Source: Theionarchaea archaeon (lineage in GTDB: Archaea > Methanobacteriota_B > Thermococci > Methanofastidiosales > SZ-28-30). Taken from it: a stretch of 64,000 nt of DNA. Shown here in pieces: positions 1 to 5,943 of the stretch (positions within the stretch are counted from its first letter, which is position 1; every line of letters starts with the position of its first letter). Made by a program: the position numbers and the translations under genes. The stretch spans positions 60,228 to 124,227 of the forward strand of contig JACVGT010000013.1 in assembly GCA_018992685.1 (NCBI GenBank), read 5' to 3'. The notes under the pieces were generated by a model, which had not been told where the DNA came from, searched no databases, and saw nothing but the letters and a program-made list of their open reading frames with translations.

Positions 1-627
1 CAACAGGTTTCAAGACAGAATGTAATTTCTGCTATTGTTGATCCAGTTCTCTTTCTGAAATTCCTGCGGATGATTCAATCCAACAGCGGAGTGGCTGACA
101 TTCGTCAATTGTGGCCTGATTTCTCCTTGGTAATGACGACAGTAAACACAAGGCCTTTTGAGAACGTGCTTCAATCTCTTCTGGGTCATGTGGAGTTCAG
201 GAGGCTATTCTGTACTGATGAGGTTGTCGTAGCCGTCCAGCTGGATGAAAAAGGTGTGGTGCCCTTGCTTGACCACTGCTATCTTGAGTTCATTCCTTTG
301 AAGCAGTGGAGAGATATGGAACTTGAAGGAGGAACCTACAGGGAATACGGATTTGACATTGAGACTATCGACACTGCTGTTTCAGGAGAAGAATATGTTT
401 TAGTCGTTACTACATCTGGGCTGTACCGGTATATCTCTGGAGACATTGTCACTATGGTTGATAGTCTGCACATGGAACCAACTGGGTTCATTGACGAATG
501 GGCAGTTCTTCCTGAACTCGCGCAGCAAATCGTACTACTGAGGGAAGTGGCACGAGACACATCTCGGACAGAACATCAGCTGGTGGCTGTGGAATCTGAA
601 CCCATGAGATTTCTGTTCAAAATCTGA
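1..627 (+). CDS. GH3 auxin-responsive family acyl-adenylate enzyme, C-terminal part (5'-truncated by the window; probably degenerate)
   Basis: Frame is open from base 1. Motifs YLEFIP and EYVLVVTTSGLYRYISGDIV match the GH3 'GLYRYxxGD' signature. The C-terminus is short and divergent. Confidence 0.6.
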   Translation, partial: QQVSRQNVISAIVDPVLFLKFLRMIQSNSGVADIRQLWPDFSLVMTTVNTRPFENVLQSLLGHVEFRRLFCTDEVVVAVQLDEKGVVPLLDHCYLEFIPLKQWRDMELEGGTYREYGFDIETIDTAVSGEEYVLVVTTSGLYRYISGDIVTMVDSLHMEPTGFIDEWAVLPELAQQIVLLREVARDTSRTEHQLVAVESEPMRFLFKI

Positions 628-910
628 ACCTGGTAGGAGTACGAACCTCGGAGTGTGACATGCAAGGGGAAGGGGACTGGTTCCATGAGAGACTGTACGG
701 TTCCCGTGAATATGGACACTTTGTGACTGATAGAATCCTCGAAAGAATCCTGTGGTCAATCCCACGATACATGGACGGTTCAACTTCTGGCTCATGCATT
801 CTCTTTTTCCACAAGATCTGAAGAGAGTTTCATGAATATCGGCTAGTCCGTACCCCTACCTCCACTAGTTCTTGTGTTCTATGTACAATCTCAGTGAAAG
901 CAATCTGTTC

Positions 911-1010
911 AAAAAAGGAATGAAAGAGTGGGATTGAGAACAAGACGAAGGAGGTGAAATCCATGGAAGTGGTAACTTGTTTTCTTCCCACTCTTTGGAG
1001 TTGTTACTCC
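911..1010 (-). ncRNA. Putative small hairpin RNA, copy 1 (anti-SD loop)
   Basis: Minus-strand BRE/TATA CAAAAG-TTTAAAAA at ~1032-1045. 11-bp stem 923-933/986-996 and inner stem 939-944/976-981. T6 run at 911-916 on the minus strand. Confidence 0.5.
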
Positions 1011-1242
1011 GCATATTCTTTGTCATGTCCCTTTTTAAACTTTTGCAGTATTCGATACCCGTCACATCGTACTGATTTGTGTAGTTTTTACTCTAATCAG
1101 GAGGGAGCACAAAATTACCATCCAGAAAAGTGCAACTAGTATTCTTTTATCTGGAAAACATTCGTGAGAAGAAGGATTGAGAAGAGTGGGATTAAATAAA
1201 CAAGACGAAGGAGGTGAAATCCATGGAAGTGGTAACTTGTTT
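939..1242. repeat. 44-bp perfect direct repeat (939-982 and 1199-1242), 260 bp apart
   Basis: aacaagacgaaggaggtgaaatccatggaagtggtaacttgttt occurs twice, each flanked by gagtggg...cccactc inverted repeats. Confidence 0.95.
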
Positions 1243-1268
1243 ACCCACTCTCCTCAGTGTTTAACTAC
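1165..1268 (-). ncRNA. Putative small hairpin RNA, copy 2 (anti-SD loop)
   Basis: Minus-strand CAAAGA-CTTAAAAA promoter at ~1291-1304. Stems 1178-1190/1244-1256 and 1197-1204/1236-1243. Pyrimidine-rich 3' end. Confidence 0.5.
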
Positions 1269-1493
1269 AATGGCACATTAGTGCCACTCCTTTTTAAGTC
1301 TTTGTAATGCTAATGTAATCAAATTTTCGGAATTAAAAAATATGACCTATTTTATGGTTCCAAGTGCACATTATTTCTCAATTAGACTTTTTATTTAGAT
1401 AACTCTATCTCAAAGCGATTTCCCTATTCCTGATTCGCATATTGATCTGTGCAGGCTAATTCATTCCTGACCAGTACGTGAGATTTACGCATT

Positions 1494-2057
1494 CTATTCC
1501 TGGACAAAGTGCCATTCACACCATACATCTCCTGAATGCTCGTCAGGGGGACAGCGCACGCAGACACACGTGATATGAGGGTTGATTTCTCTTACAAAAT
1601 TGGAGAGGTAGTTGTATCTCACCTGTTTGCAGGGGAACTCTGGAAATCCTTTCTTTAACCGAGTTAACTGTGTCTTGCAATTGAGGATCCTCAGAATGCC
1701 TGTACCATTTTCCACGGTGATGATTTTCTCCTGTTGATCAAGTGCCCAGCTCGTGGTCTGCAGAGCTCTCATGAGAGTCTCAACAGAAGGGTCTTGCAGG
1801 TTCAAGATACGCTTGAGGGCTTTTGCTTCAAGAGTTCCCATGGCATTCCACACTTCGGCATCAATTTCTGCAGCAGCCTCTGTCCCAAACCGGTTCTCAA
1901 TACCCAGAAAGTACAACCCATCTACTCTCCAGATGTTCCTGTTATTGAACATCATAATCTCAATGAGCTTATCCCTAGGCAATGCTTCCAACATGTCTCT
2001 GTCTTCGTCACTGATGTACGACATTGAGTCACCGAATCTGGCTTCACTCTTCACCAT
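1494..2057 (-). CDS. DUF6125-like / V4R-related small ligand-binding protein
   Basis: WRVDGLYFLGIENRFG motif and Cys pattern C...C...CPP...WCEW. GGAGG lies upstream of the ATG at 2057. Confidence 0.65.
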   Translation of the reverse strand: MVKSEARFGDSMSYISDEDRDMLEALPRDKLIEIMMFNNRNIWRVDGLYFLGIENRFGTEAAAEIDAEVWNAMGTLEAKALKRILNLQDPSVETLMRALQTTSWALDQQEKIITVENGTGILRILNCKTQLTRLKKGFPEFPCKQVRYNYLSNFVREINPHITCVCVRCPPDEHSGDVWCEWHFVQE

Positions 2058-2106
2058 ATAAGTGTTACCCTCCAAACCAGAGTATGAAGGTCGCTCAAAG
2101 AGCCAC

Positions 2107-3414
2107 TCACACCCCCCCACAGGCTGTGGCAAGGGTTCTCCATTGTGGAAACCTCTTTGGGTTTTTTGGATATCGACTGTAAACAGCCCTTAGGATACCC
2201 ATCTTGCCGAGAGCACAGGCCAATTTGAAGAGGAGGGAAGGGGTTTTTGCTGCATTAGCGGCTGTGGTAAGGATGTCAGTCAACGTAAAGGAGGGTTCTT
2301 TTTCCTCCAGCTGAGACAAGACTTCATCAGTGATGACATTCTGCAACAAGGATTGGAGTTCTTTGCTGGTAAGAGACACCATGAAGTCTCTTAAAGGCAG
2401 TGATGATCCAAGAAGCGCACCGTATCTCTGCATGAAATCATAGTTGTACTTCCACAATACCTCCAGAGAGGTGTCTTTGCTGTGGATGGCCTCTGCTGCC
2501 GTTGTAGCTGCCATGTGGCCTGCAGTGAAGGCAGGTGCTATTCCTTCTCCTGTCAAGGGATTCGTGTGCCTGGCAGCATCACCACAGGCCAAGAGACCTG
2601 GAGCCACCATGGAAGGAAGAGAACCTCCAAGGGGGAGAGCACCATAGCCTGCTTGGGTTTTCTCCTTGATTTTGAATCGTGTGTGTTCGTGGAGCGCCTG
2701 AGCCACTGCCTTTCTGAAATGGGTACTGCGCTGTTCCATCCCTCCAGCACCCACGTTCAATTCATAGGTTCCCTTGGGAAAGAACCAGAAATACCCTGAA
2801 GGCACGAAGGAATTGTCAAAAACGATGGTTGCGTATTCCTGAGATATTGCCTCTTCCAGGATGATGTTCTCCTTATATCCCAATCCGATACGTGATGGGC
2901 TGCCGCGCCCACGTCTGAGCTCCCTACTGAGGACAGAGAAAACCCCACTACAATCCATGGTCAATGTCCCAAGGTAGGACGCATCATGAGTCTTAACACC
3001 ATGTACTTCATTTTTCCCAACAGACCCCCGTACGACTCCTTGGTGAAGTTCTGCTCCTCTTCTGAGAAGCTCCTTTACCATGGTCTGCCCAAACTGCCAT
3101 CTGTCTATAGTGCATAGAGGGTCGGTCACCCGAACGATGCCATGGTCACCGTCCATAAGTCCAGAAAAGGTGCAGACTTGCAGGCCTTTCAAAGGATAAT
3201 GATCAACAGAAATCTGAAATTCATTCTTGAGCCATTTCACGATCCTCATGGGCATGAGTTCTCCACAAATCTTTCTGCCGACAAATTCTCTCCCTTTACG
3301 TTCTATGATACAGATGGTGAGATCCTCTCTCAGTGCTGTTAGGCCTGCAGCTGCTCCTGCAATTCCGCAGCCAACAATAACGAGATCATAGGGAGCAATC
3401 GTCATATCACTCAT
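2107..3414 (-). CDS. Geranylgeranyl reductase family FAD-dependent oxidoreductase
   Basis: Motifs GCGIAGA (Rossmann fold), KICGE, PSGYFWFFPKG and GDAARHTNPLTGEGI. Confidence 0.85.
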   Translation of the reverse strand: MSDMTIAPYDLVIVGCGIAGAAAGLTALREDLTICIIERKGREFVGRKICGELMPMRIVKWLKNEFQISVDHYPLKGLQVCTFSGLMDGDHGIVRVTDPLCTIDRWQFGQTMVKELLRRGAELHQGVVRGSVGKNEVHGVKTHDASYLGTLTMDCSGVFSVLSRELRRGRGSPSRIGLGYKENIILEEAISQEYATIVFDNSFVPSGYFWFFPKGTYELNVGAGGMEQRSTHFRKAVAQALHEHTRFKIKEKTQAGYGALPLGGSLPSMVAPGLLACGDAARHTNPLTGEGIAPAFTAGHMAATTAAEAIHSKDTSLEVLWKYNYDFMQRYGALLGSSLPLRDFMVSLTSKELQSLLQNVITDEVLSQLEEKEPSFTLTDILTTAANAAKTPSLLFKLACALGKMGILRAVYSRYPKNPKRFPQWRTLATACGGV

Positions 3415-3772
3415 GATTAAGGAATTGTTGTTTAAGAATCTTATCATTTAGTAATCATGGCTTGTAGAATCTTTAACTTAATTGACGGTTCTCTCTAAAT
3501 TCTTCATTCGATGCAAAAAGCGCTACACGAAAGTTCTAAGATCGTTGTAAACTTTTCACGACATTTTGATTGAGGAATGTTTTCAGCCTGCAAAAGCTCT
3601 CACCCCGCTAGATCATTCTCCCATCCGGATTGTCAGTCCGTGGGCTGCAGAAACCGGCGGAGGATGTTGAGAGGCCGAACCTCGAGACTCGCTTTCTGAG
3701 CATCATCCAATGCTCAGTGCGCAGTGCAAAAGATTTATTACAGGATGCGTAATAGACTGTGGAGGTTACAGT

Positions 3773-4867
3773 ATGAGATCAGAAATTCAGGCCCTGGCCG
3801 GAACCTATGATGCTGATAACATTCACATCGGTGTGCTGGGTTCCCATTCTGCCCTTGAGGTTGGATATGGAGCCCGAGAAGAAGGATTTAAAACTGTAGT
3901 GATCTGTCAGAAAGGGAGAGAAAAGACCTACACCCAGCGGTTCAGATCTCTGTTTGACGAAGTGATTCTCCTGGAGAAATTCTCCCACATTTCGTCTCCT
4001 AATATTGTGGAGAAGCTCAGAACGTTGAATACCATCTTTGTTCCCAACAGGTCATTCTCAGTGTACTGCGGATATGACAATATTGAGACTAGGTTTGAGG
4101 TTCCTCTGTTTGGAGCACGAACAATGCTTCGAGCTGAGGAAAGAGATGTGCCCAAGAACCAGTACTATCTCATGGAAAAGGCAGGAGTCCCATTTCCGAA
4201 AATAATAAGAAGTGCTGAACACATTGACAGATTAGTCATGGTAAAGCTGCCCCATGCTGTAAGAAAGGTGGAGCGGGGATTTTTCACGTGTTCATCATTC
4301 AAAGAATACACACACAGATCTGAGGACCTCATCAAAAAAGGGTTGATCACGAGAAGTGATCTAGAAAATGCAGTCATTGAGGAGTTCGTGGTGGGAGCTC
4401 TTTTCAACCTGGATTATTTCTATTCTCCGCTGCAGGATGATGTGGAGTTCATGGGGGCTGACCAGAGAATTGAAACAGACATTGAAGGGATACTCCACAT
4501 GACAGCTGAAGAACAGAGAGCTTTTTCCCAGACGCCCACCGTCATCCCCATTGGACATCGAGGATTAACAGTGCGGGAGTCGCAGCTGGATACCGTATTT
4601 GAACTGGGTGAAAAATTCGCTGAGACCTGCAAACAGGAATATCCCCCTGGAATATTCGGATGTTTCGCATTGCAGGGAGTTTTCAACAGAGATTTGAAGT
4701 TTTATACCTTTGATGTGTCATTGCGAGTGCCTGGGGCGCCGATCTTGTTGACCAGCTCTCCCTATACGGTATATAAGTACGGGATACAGATGAGTGTGGG
4801 ACGGCGTATTGCCATGGAAATCCGGGAGGCGGTGAATGCGGGGCGGTTGTCAGACTGTGTCACATGA
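3773..4867 (+). CDS. purP: PurP family formate--AICAR ligase (ATP-grasp)
   Basis: Motifs IGVLGSHSALE, FVPNRSF, ERGFF, FALQG and DVSLRVPG. GGAGG SD precedes the ATG at 3773. Confidence 0.8.
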   Translation: MRSEIQALAGTYDADNIHIGVLGSHSALEVGYGAREEGFKTVVICQKGREKTYTQRFRSLFDEVILLEKFSHISSPNIVEKLRTLNTIFVPNRSFSVYCGYDNIETRFEVPLFGARTMLRAEERDVPKNQYYLMEKAGVPFPKIIRSAEHIDRLVMVKLPHAVRKVERGFFTCSSFKEYTHRSEDLIKKGLITRSDLENAVIEEFVVGALFNLDYFYSPLQDDVEFMGADQRIETDIEGILHMTAEEQRAFSQTPTVIPIGHRGLTVRESQLDTVFELGEKFAETCKQEYPPGIFGCFALQGVFNRDLKFYTFDVSLRVPGAPILLTSSPYTVYKYGIQMSVGRRIAMEIREAVNAGRLSDCVT

Positions 4868-5943
4868 AGTATGTGCTTGTGGGGTTGTCTACCCGTGCTG
4901 TGGCAGAATCTGCAGTGAGAGCAGGGAAAGACTGTGTAGCAGTAGATTTCTTTGGTGACATAGACCTGGAATCTGTATGCAAAACAGTGTCTCTGAAGCG
5001 TGAATATAACGTATCATTGAGCTCATTCAATCCATACTCTTTCTTGAAGGCTGCCGAGTTAGTTGATGCAGATTGTATGATATATGTAGGTCCGCTGGAG
5101 AACTACCCCTGTATTATCCAGAAATTCGCCTCATACTATGAGATTATAGGTAATGATGCAAAGACGAATGAAAAGGTGAGAGACTGGAAAGTCGTGTATC
5201 AAGTATGCAATCAACATAACATCAAGACACCAAAAACCTACAATGGACATCACTATATAGCCAAGCCAAAAAAGAGTGGGGGTGGCACGGGAATTCACAG
5301 ACTCTCATCATATGTAATACAGGAATTGGTGCGAGGAGACCCGTATTCAGTATCGTTTGTAGGAGATGGTGAAAAAGCACAGATATTGTCAATAAATGAA
5401 CAGCTCATTGGAAGAGAAGAGTTCGGTGCACGAGAATTCTGGTACTGTGGTAACATTACTCCTGTTTTCCCGGGAGAACATGCAAGTGTCGTCGCAGATG
5501 CCGCGTGCACCGCACTAACCCGCCATTTTGGGCTGAAGGGAAGCTGTGGTATTGATTTCGTGGTTCACTCGTCCAGTAGCCCATATGTTCTGGAAGTGAA
5601 CCCACGTCCACAGGCCACCCTTGAGCTGCTGGAAAGAGTGTACGGGACGAATATGGTGGTCGTGCACGAGAATGCGGTCAGAGGGGTTCTGGAAGCGCCT
5701 TCTGCCCGATCAGGTACCCCAGAGACATGGGGGAAGGCCATTATTTACGCTGAAAAGGACATTATTATGCCCGATACCAGAGAATGGCTGGATCACTCAT
5801 GGATAAAGGATATTCCTCATCCCTCTGAATTAATTCTGAAATCCGAGCCCATCTGTACTGTTATTGCTGATGGCAAGGATAGAGATGATTGCTTTGAACA
5901 TCTCGTGCAATGCTCCCTTACCATCAGAGATTTCTTTCGATAA
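4864..5943 (+). CDS. ATP-grasp domain protein (COG2232-like carboligase)
   Basis: Motifs STRAVAESA, DFFGD, KPKKSGGGTGI, YCGN and LEVNPR. ATGA overlap with purP. Confidence 0.75.
   Translation: MKYVLVGLSTRAVAESAVRAGKDCVAVDFFGDIDLESVCKTVSLKREYNVSLSSFNPYSFLKAAELVDADCMIYVGPLENYPCIIQKFASYYEIIGNDAKTNEKVRDWKVVYQVCNQHNIKTPKTYNGHHYIAKPKKSGGGTGIHRLSSYVIQELVRGDPYSVSFVGDGEKAQILSINEQLIGREEFGAREFWYCGNITPVFPGEHASVVADAACTALTRHFGLKGSCGIDFVVHSSSSPYVLEVNPRPQATLELLERVYGTNMVVVHENAVRGVLEAPSARSGTPETWGKAIIYAEKDIIMPDTREWLDHSWIKDIPHPSELILKSEPICTVIADGKDRDDCFEHLVQCSLTIRDFFR

Follow-up and report, generated by a model that had tools for sequence, protein, structure and literature searches.

Two tandem, separately promoted small RNA genes predicted in a Theionarchaea genome, with an invariant loop complementary to a translation start region

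Two tandem, separately promoted genes for structured small RNAs (sRNAs) very probably lie on the minus strand at positions 911–1304 of the window, the 64-kb stretch of a Theionarchaea genome analysed here (assembly of 3.0 Mb, 91% complete). The call of separate genes, sRNA-1 and sRNA-2, is made because the RNA family to which they belong shows covariation and a wobble-pair asymmetry, because a B recognition element (BRE) and TATA box stand at a fixed distance in 21/21 copies of the window's kind, and because conservation tracks the promoter and the RNA body. Given such independent genes, the balance tips slightly towards a loop that pairs with the Shine-Dalgarno (SD)/start regions of messenger RNAs (mRNAs). 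For the joint reading, in which the two are sibling sRNA genes with separate promoters and their loop pairs with SD/start regions, we estimate a probability of about 0.48.

About 40 distinct copies of the RNA family were found, in the window's own genome, in two genomes of the same genus (named Theionarchaea; G001 and G002) and in sediment metagenomes. The own genome holds four core copies (two in the window, one on contig C11 and one at the end of contig C1), and there are two good copies in G001 and three in G002. The loop part CUUCCAUGGAUUUCACCUCCUU, a core of 22 nucleotides (nt), was identical in all 40 copies of a regular-expression scan (21 of type A and 19 of type B/C), and only three of 133 genomes of the phylum contain it, all three of the window's genus (many of the 133 are incomplete). 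A pattern scan of metagenome contigs gave 45 loci, of which all except five were hairpin copies; the five (L029, L032, L033, L045 and L058) were rejected as unrelated SD-like or coding matches. The copies fall into three stem classes (A, B and C) and a few singletons, with a loop common to all and an outer helix that differs. Type A, the window's kind, has arms like GAGAAGAGTGGGA and TCCCACTCTTCTC, type B has arms like GCAGAGGGTCTGCA and TGCAGACCCTCTGC, and type C, comprising the other two copies of the own genome, has further arm sequences.

The two units of the window are built alike (Table 1). The exact 44-nt repeat at 939–982 and 1199–1242 occurs twice in the window (none of 100 shuffles gave two matches), and each copy is enclosed by nested inverted repeats, preceded on the minus strand by a BRE-TATA sequence and followed by a T- or pyrimidine-rich tract. 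All of this had been described in an initial annotation made from the letters alone, together with the minus-strand loop sequence, the reverse complement of 945–975, and each feature was found as given there. The 31-nt loop of sRNA-1 reads UUACCACUUCCAUGGAUUUCACCUCCUUCGU on the RNA strand, and the sRNA-2 loop (1205–1235) has the same letters. A conserved TAACAAC motif (1006→1000) marks the putative 5' end of sRNA-1, 25 nt from the TATA box. On the 3' side of sRNA-2 lies a pyrimidine-rich tail, where conservation stops at 1164, with a U4 tract at 1158→1155. The transcript ends of both sRNAs are predictions from the sequence. Both hairpins have folding z-scores of −4.2 to −4.8 against shuffles on either strand, and one pair of the sRNA-2 outer helix is G·U on the minus strand and A·C on the plus strand. 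A covariance model of the family (R1, see below) scored 913–1011 at 56.5 bits and 1166–1278 at 60.2 bits, both on the minus strand.

Table 1. Predicted features of the tandem sRNA locus in the window (positions as in the window; G001 is a genome of the same genus).
Feature	Position	Strand	Details
sRNA-1 gene (predicted ~90–96 nt)	911–1006	−	putative 5' end near 1004–1008, putative 3' end at U6 tract 916→911
sRNA-1 hairpin	923–996	−	outer helix 923–933/986–996 (11 bp), inner helix 939–944/976–981; from folds and family covariation
sRNA-1 BRE/TATA	1032–1045	−	minus strand 1045→1032 CAAAAG-TTTAAAAA; identical in G001
Spacer between the two genes	1053–1163		unconserved, 80/111 (72%) identical to G001
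sRNA-2 gene (predicted ~100 nt)	1164–1264	−	putative 5' end near 1262–1266, motif TAAACAC 1263→1257
sRNA-2 hairpin	1178–1256	−	outer helix 1178–1190/1244–1256, inner helix 1198–1204/1236–1242
Palindrome TGGCAC-ATTA-GTGCCA	1271–1286		in the TATA-to-predicted-start spacer of sRNA-2; not kept in G001
sRNA-2 BRE/TATA	1291–1304	−	minus strand 1304→1291 CAAAGA-CTTAAAAA; position fits family
Conserved block upstream of sRNA-2 promoter	1305–1345	−	TGATCA-centred palindrome-like motif, then AAATAAA in relatives

Judged from the alignment with G001, conservation follows the outline of two small genes and of a separate promoter for each. The body and promoter of sRNA-1 (917–1052) are identical at 136/136 positions and the flanks of this block at 38–72% (38% for 700–910, upstream), while the body of sRNA-2 (1164–1269) is identical at 106/107 and its BRE/TATA (1289–1307) at 19/19, with 81% identity over 1308–1420. 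The TATA-to-start spacer of sRNA-2 (1270–1288) retains only 12/19 positions (63%), and the arms of its palindrome no longer pair in G001. Since this spacer has diverged, the palindrome is no conserved operator: it is present at 1271–1286 as the initial annotation said, the differential regulation that had been read into it did not hold up, and it is probably fortuitous. The block at 1305–1345 may be a regulator site. Blocks of this kind recur in L025, L026, L042, L052, L054, L066, L067, L068 and G002:C7 (1640–1700), each time upstream of whichever copy is nearest the promoter. A short ATTTT..AAAAT repeat was seen farther upstream of the TGATCA-centred block.

The same gene architecture extends across type A. 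A [CT]TT[TA]AA[AT][AG] box lies 60–71 nt upstream of the core in 21/21 type A copies, with ACAAAG-like BRE letters before it, and a conserved (T)AAACAC motif follows ~24–27 nt past the TATA-like box. Archaeal transcription is expected to start at about that distance after the TATA box. Downstream, 20/21 type A copies have a run of at least four T in the 50 nt that follow the core, and 11/21 have at least five. Two tandem boxes GAAACGTTTAAAAG, in the style of the sRNA BRE/TATA, were also seen in the 16S leader of G001, upstream of the rRNA operon (L094 = G001:C127).

Covariation was assessed on 36 of the 37 full-length copies, leaving out copy 1 of G001, which is identical to copy 1 of the window. 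In a mixed MAFFT alignment (A2), RNAalifold found three loop pairs only, as the arms of two stem classes stood four columns out of register; the classes were therefore analysed separately and through a covariance model. In the type A alignment (16 copies), 92.8% of cells were paired. In the MAFFT alignment of type B/C (20 copies), the value was 96.7% vs 40–53% for slid controls, and double-sided changes were present at 7/14 pairs, a number reached by 0/500 shuffles. The model R1, built on the type B/C copies, recovered the type A copies at 54–71 bits. An alignment fitted to the model (39 copies from 33 sources) had 96.0% of cells paired and double changes at 14/14 pairs (slid controls 41–61%); being model-fitted, this alignment leans towards structure, against which the two MAFFT alignments serve as an independent check. 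Judged by eye, covariation extends to the inner helix, where one and the same position shows C-G, U-A and G-C among the window, L025 and L035, and only weak 3-bp pairs were predicted in the loop interior. Covariation among homologues, which the initial annotation had named as a check on an RNA, is thus present. Weak R1 matches (E-values of 2.5e-4 to 4e-3) were found in G017, G025, G043 and G001:C8, the last with a type-B-like stem and a diverged loop that still contains CACCTCCT.

The wobble pairs point to the minus strand. Within the defined helices, 34 cells are G·U on the minus strand (A·C on the plus strand) vs 4 of the reverse kind, split as 7 vs 1 in type A and 27 vs 3 in type B/C. The initial annotation had called this evidence mixed. 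In addition, the minus-strand fold is the more stable one in 16/19 type B/C copies.

Contigs assembled from two metatranscriptome libraries of one study (X19/X20, unstranded) cover both hairpins and the spacer at a word depth of 2–4, spanning 953–1068 (plus 22 nt in a G001-like variant), 1169–1268 and 1164–1280 (plus 92 nt). They show presence in an RNA library, nothing more, and DNA carry-over is possible. The flanks 600–932 and 1303–1700 were uncovered in X19/X20 and had depths of 4–16 in the DNA runs of the same study, a difference not used as evidence at a depth of 2–4.

In the proposed mechanism, each gene would be transcribed from ~25 nt downstream of its archaeal BRE/TATA box into an RNA of ~95–100 nt, which would end in the U- or pyrimidine-rich tract and fold into one long hairpin with an outer helix of 11–13 bp, an internal loop and an inner helix of 6–7 bp. 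The helix would serve as a scaffold, free to vary in sequence if pairing is kept, and would expose an invariant apical loop that is the exact complement of a strong SD, a 6-nt spacer and AUG. By pairing with SD/start regions of mRNAs, the loop would keep 30S subunits off and damp translation, in analogy to the anti-SD loop sRNAs of bacteria and sRNA162 of Methanosarcina. Where the transcripts end, that they act in trans and which class of targets they have are inferences. The invariant loop portion (28–31 nt) reads CUUCCAUGGAUUUCACCUCCUUCGUCUU on the RNA strand, and variation, seen for example in G002, is confined to a few bases at the beginning of the loop. Its complement is AAGGAGGUGA, then six bases, then AUG. 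In the own genome GGAGGTG mostly stands 5–7 nt before starts, vs 6 nt before ATG in the loop complement, and about half of the genome's long open reading frames (ORFs) show an SD-like word close to a possible start.

In bacteria, C-rich anti-SD hairpin loops are found in Staphylococcus RNAs of the RNAIII/RsaE type. The closest archaeal parallel drawn here is sRNA162 of Methanosarcina mazei, described as having a single-stranded region that pairs with an mRNA at its ribosome-binding site and start, with translational repression as the presumed effect (PMC3510493). Both are archaeal small RNAs with a single-stranded region for such pairing (here predicted). In sRNA162, which is encoded by a single gene and has a target demonstrated by experiment, the pairing region is a linker joining structured domains (PMC3510493), whereas the RNA described here has a large hairpin loop with 28 invariant nt and genes that are often tandem, and the sequences are unrelated. 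The sibling sRNAs of Neisseria are also similar, being described as tandem, near-identical and separately promoted genes with pyrimidine-rich, SD-complementary loops (PMC5362039). The bacterial siblings have short seeds and defined regulons, whereas the present loop extends over spacer and start codon as well and has the letters of the 16S tail of the genus. A small RNA that hinders mRNA loading on the small subunit globally is known from Haloferax, in the form of a Val-tRNA fragment (PMC5711459, PMC11009984). That fragment is reported to bind the 30S subunit itself, whereas the present RNA, with its likeness to the 16S tail, would have mRNAs as its partners.

Several results weigh against the joint reading. 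An ungapped scan of the genome with the loop complement gave a best match elsewhere of 22/31, and in duplex energy with 19,649 candidate start regions the loop had no advantage over five shuffled versions of it (mean −13.8 kcal/mol with 38% at or below −15, vs means of −11.9 to −13.9 and 24–37%). The top two start regions, of a subtilisin-like secreted protein and a KH-domain protein, were rejected, as their extra complementarity is lost in the orthologues of G001, G002 and G003 and in paralogues. The loop letters outside the SD part do not match the average start region of the genome, so that a generic anti-SD role fails to explain the 28 invariant nt; the loop could be constrained by something beyond generic SD pairing, such as several targets, a protein or a link to pre-rRNA. 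The type A promoter box was found in 0/19 type B/C copies, which lie in operon-leader-like positions, and the module may thus not always be a free-standing sRNA. Folding of whole segments favours the plus strand in 11/17 type A copies through extra flanking pairs, which makes gene architecture the stronger strand argument for this class; taken alone, type A is assigned to the minus strand chiefly from its promoter and U-tract, with the wobble cells (7 vs 1) in addition. Finally, one RNA-library contig reaches 1280–1282, upstream of the predicted start of sRNA-2, and such shallow, unstranded contigs give neither transcript ends nor strand. Of the trans-acting sRNAs proposed in the initial annotation, which would occlude SD/start codons or mimic the 16S tail, the duplicated minus-strand hairpin genes have stood, while a conserved target was not found in the genome.

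The resemblance of the loop to 16S rRNA also allows it to be read as a decoy of the (pre-)16S 3' end, titrating a protein or process that recognises this end (3'-end maturation, anti-SD-binding factors) or acting as a general SD sponge. The own assembly is without small-subunit rRNA, and the comparison was made with G001, the sole genome of the genus with the 16S 3' end assembled. This end reads ...GATCACCTCC, and the loop contains UCACCUCCUU, the letters of the 16S 3' end of the genus, plus CAU. The likeness noted in the initial annotation is therefore real in the genus, and it does not prove a function. The G001 trailer (L094 = G001:C127) begins AATTCCATGGAC, directly after ...GATCACCTCC, so that end and trailer run ...GATCACCTCC followed by AATTCCATGGACTC..., and the loop holds both the shared TCACCTCC and a 9-mer of the trailer, TTCCATGGA; TCCATGGA is self-complementary. 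Genomes G004 and G005, in which the RNA family was not found, have trailers without this 9-mer. The 28-nt invariance goes beyond the needs of SD pairing, and the occurrence of the same loop on chromosomal and mobile-element-like copies suggests a universal partner. Against this, the shared motifs stand in swapped order relative to the tail letters, so that the loop is no colinear copy; the match is a single observation after many looks, with a rough chance of a few in a thousand before allowing for those looks; and the gene neighbourhood links no protein partner. We consider it unlikely that the RNAs are portable pre-16S 3'-end decoys of chromosome and mobile elements, made of anti-SD letters and the first trailer bases including the self-complementary UCCAUGGA. 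Were this true, small-subunit 3'-end maturation would be tuned or SD-led mRNAs soaked up, shifting translation between SD-dependent and SD-independent messages.

The plus strand offers a different function, that of a type I toxin-antitoxin system of the Ibs/Sib kind or a mini-ORF RNA, in which the minus-strand RNA would be a cis-antisense repressor of an mRNA for a small hydrophobic peptide. Sib/Ibs and other chromosomal type I repeats (PMC2887945) are tandem, intergenic and ~100–150 nt long, with a separately promoted antisense RNA over the SD/ATG of small hydrophobic ORFs on the opposite strand. They are the closest rival kind, and an invariant perfect SD, 6 nt and ATG would fit a double use of both strands. 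The plus-strand ORFs of type A are mostly hydrophobic (mean hydropathy >0.5 in 16/17), and tandem intergenic copies together with mobile-element-like ones resemble the distribution of type I systems. The ORF test fails, however. From the conserved ATG, copy 1 of the window encodes 58 amino acids and copy 2 encodes 13, and the plus-strand ORF of copy 1 in G001 stops at 30 instead of 58. Across the family the lengths range from 13 to 58 amino acids in type A (15 or fewer in 5/17) and from 5 to 90 in type B/C (including ORFs of 5, 5 and 7). All three frames occur across the 3' arm, and close relatives such as L052 and L066 are set apart by a frameshift directly behind the helix. Coding on the plus strand was rejected on these grounds, and the argument from unconserved length in the initial annotation, made on the window's two copies, extends to the whole family. 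Moreover, the loop is invariant at every position, would-be third codon positions included, the A·C mismatches indicate that a plus-strand helix is not maintained, and no conserved plus-strand promoter was seen by eye, the upstream regions having only irregular AT-rich patches. A type I system is accordingly improbable.

About as improbable is a cis-acting module of an upstream transcript, be it a 3'-untranslated-region stabiliser, a processing or termination structure (of DUF6125 or hdrA-mvhD), or, for type B/C, the leader of a winged-helix gene. This explanation draws on the genomic neighbourhoods. Two convergent genes, one GH3-like and the other DUF6125, flank type A in the window and in G001 and G002. 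The same holds for at least nine metagenome loci, whose GH3-like and DUF6125 neighbours are 44–54% and 67–75% identical to the window's proteins. A second conserved type A setting, with a tandem pair, lies directly downstream of hdrA-like and mvhD/FlpD genes on the same strand (G002:C24 10860–12700, L035 1–4030). In every case type A follows a gene that runs in the same direction, either DUF6125 or mvhD. Type B lies 150–200 nt upstream of a PadR/HxlR-like winged-helix gene on the RNA strand in 10 of ~21 loci examined, and the RNA-library contig running upstream of the predicted sRNA-2 start would also suit a cis module. A terminator or stabiliser, however, needs neither an invariant 28-nt loop nor a BRE/TATA at fixed distance, and the same module occurs in three unrelated contexts. 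A cis target for type B was rejected: the winged-helix gene start can pair with either loop half, and shows no compensating change where the 5' part of the loop differs.

The repeat might instead act as DNA, for example as a protein operator, as a hairpin used in recombination or replication, or as a miniature transposable element. Its repeated, palindromic nature would suit such a role, as would the copy at a contig end and the neighbours of type B/C, which include genes for an integrase, a DNA methylase and a tRNA; a single-stranded DNA hairpin would also fit the wobble asymmetry. A DNA-level role is very improbable, however, given only four copies in the genome, syntenic type A positions across diverged genomes, stems and ends that vary around a fixed centre (the opposite of transposon ends; miniature transposable or repetitive extragenic palindromic (REP)-like repeats would have many dispersed copies with constant ends at non-syntenic sites), a promoter and U-tract conserved around the hairpin, and no match of the 22-nt core among 2.9 million IMG/VR viral contigs.

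The RNA family is new, while the type of regulator is already known. In the 64-kb window, no family of Rfam 15 (including C/D-box and H/ACA guides, riboswitches and archaeal sRNAs) was found at gathering threshold, as the initial annotation's proposal of an Rfam check had left to be seen, and a permissive threshold on 800–1500 gave four best matches with E-values of 6.6–9.5 and unrelated biology. Among the Theionarchaea papers listed in a literature search, no title concerned small RNAs, and the RNA family did not appear among the papers listed on archaeal sRNAs with anti-SD loops. The mechanisms of archaeal sRNAs rest on very few examples, to which the family adds a clean signature from metagenomes alone, i.e. 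a covarying scaffold, an invariant 28–31-nt loop and a conserved promoter. Because the loop is complementary to a textbook start region and has the 16S tail letters, a clear, testable hypothesis of translational control can be put forward for an uncultured lineage. Theionarchaea have been placed as the sister group of Thermococcales (PMC6972569), where genetics exists. The same loop on different stems in mobile-element-like contexts suggests that the module has been exchanged or re-invented, which bears on the competition between elements and hosts for ribosomes.

In the sediment DNA runs X6 and X7, the summed word depth at the core (933–1006 and 1192–1265) was ~500–3000 vs 4–16 in the flanks, and the core is therefore taken to occur there in many more contexts or organisms than this genome.

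Tandem pairs, 214–496 nt apart, were found in at least six distinct loci. The neighbours of the sRNA genes within 1–5943 of the window are the C-terminal part of a GH3-family protein, DUF6125, a geranylgeranyl-reductase-like flavoprotein, a PurP-like protein (DUF1246/DUF1297) and an ATP-grasp protein. The surroundings of type B/C are mobile-element-like, with a tyrosine integrase and a TrmB-like gene in L056, a family of unclassified helix-turn-helix (HTH)-like genes of 312 amino acids close by, and tRNA-Asp and a DNA methylase near the type C copies of the own genome. About 600 bp beside both type C copies (G000:C1 1–700 and G000:C11 30400–31000; L003 and L004) are ~90% identical between the contigs, of which C1 ends inside its hairpin. 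On C11 the HTH-like gene of the 312-amino-acid family appears as three overlapping ORF pieces and may be disrupted.

Around the type B hairpins of L030 (3240–3760) and L056 (10090–10210), the word (T)TTCAC(C) occurs four to six times, and both loci have a second long hairpin with a CACCTCC-containing strand, then a hairpin with a T-run and a PadR/HxlR-like gene. This repeat stretch may be a leader or an iteron-like region of a mobile element. An ORF of 34 amino acids in L056 (9889–9993; MGETIKDD...) ends immediately before the type B hairpin, and similar endings were seen in L041, L050, L057, L062, L064 and L065.

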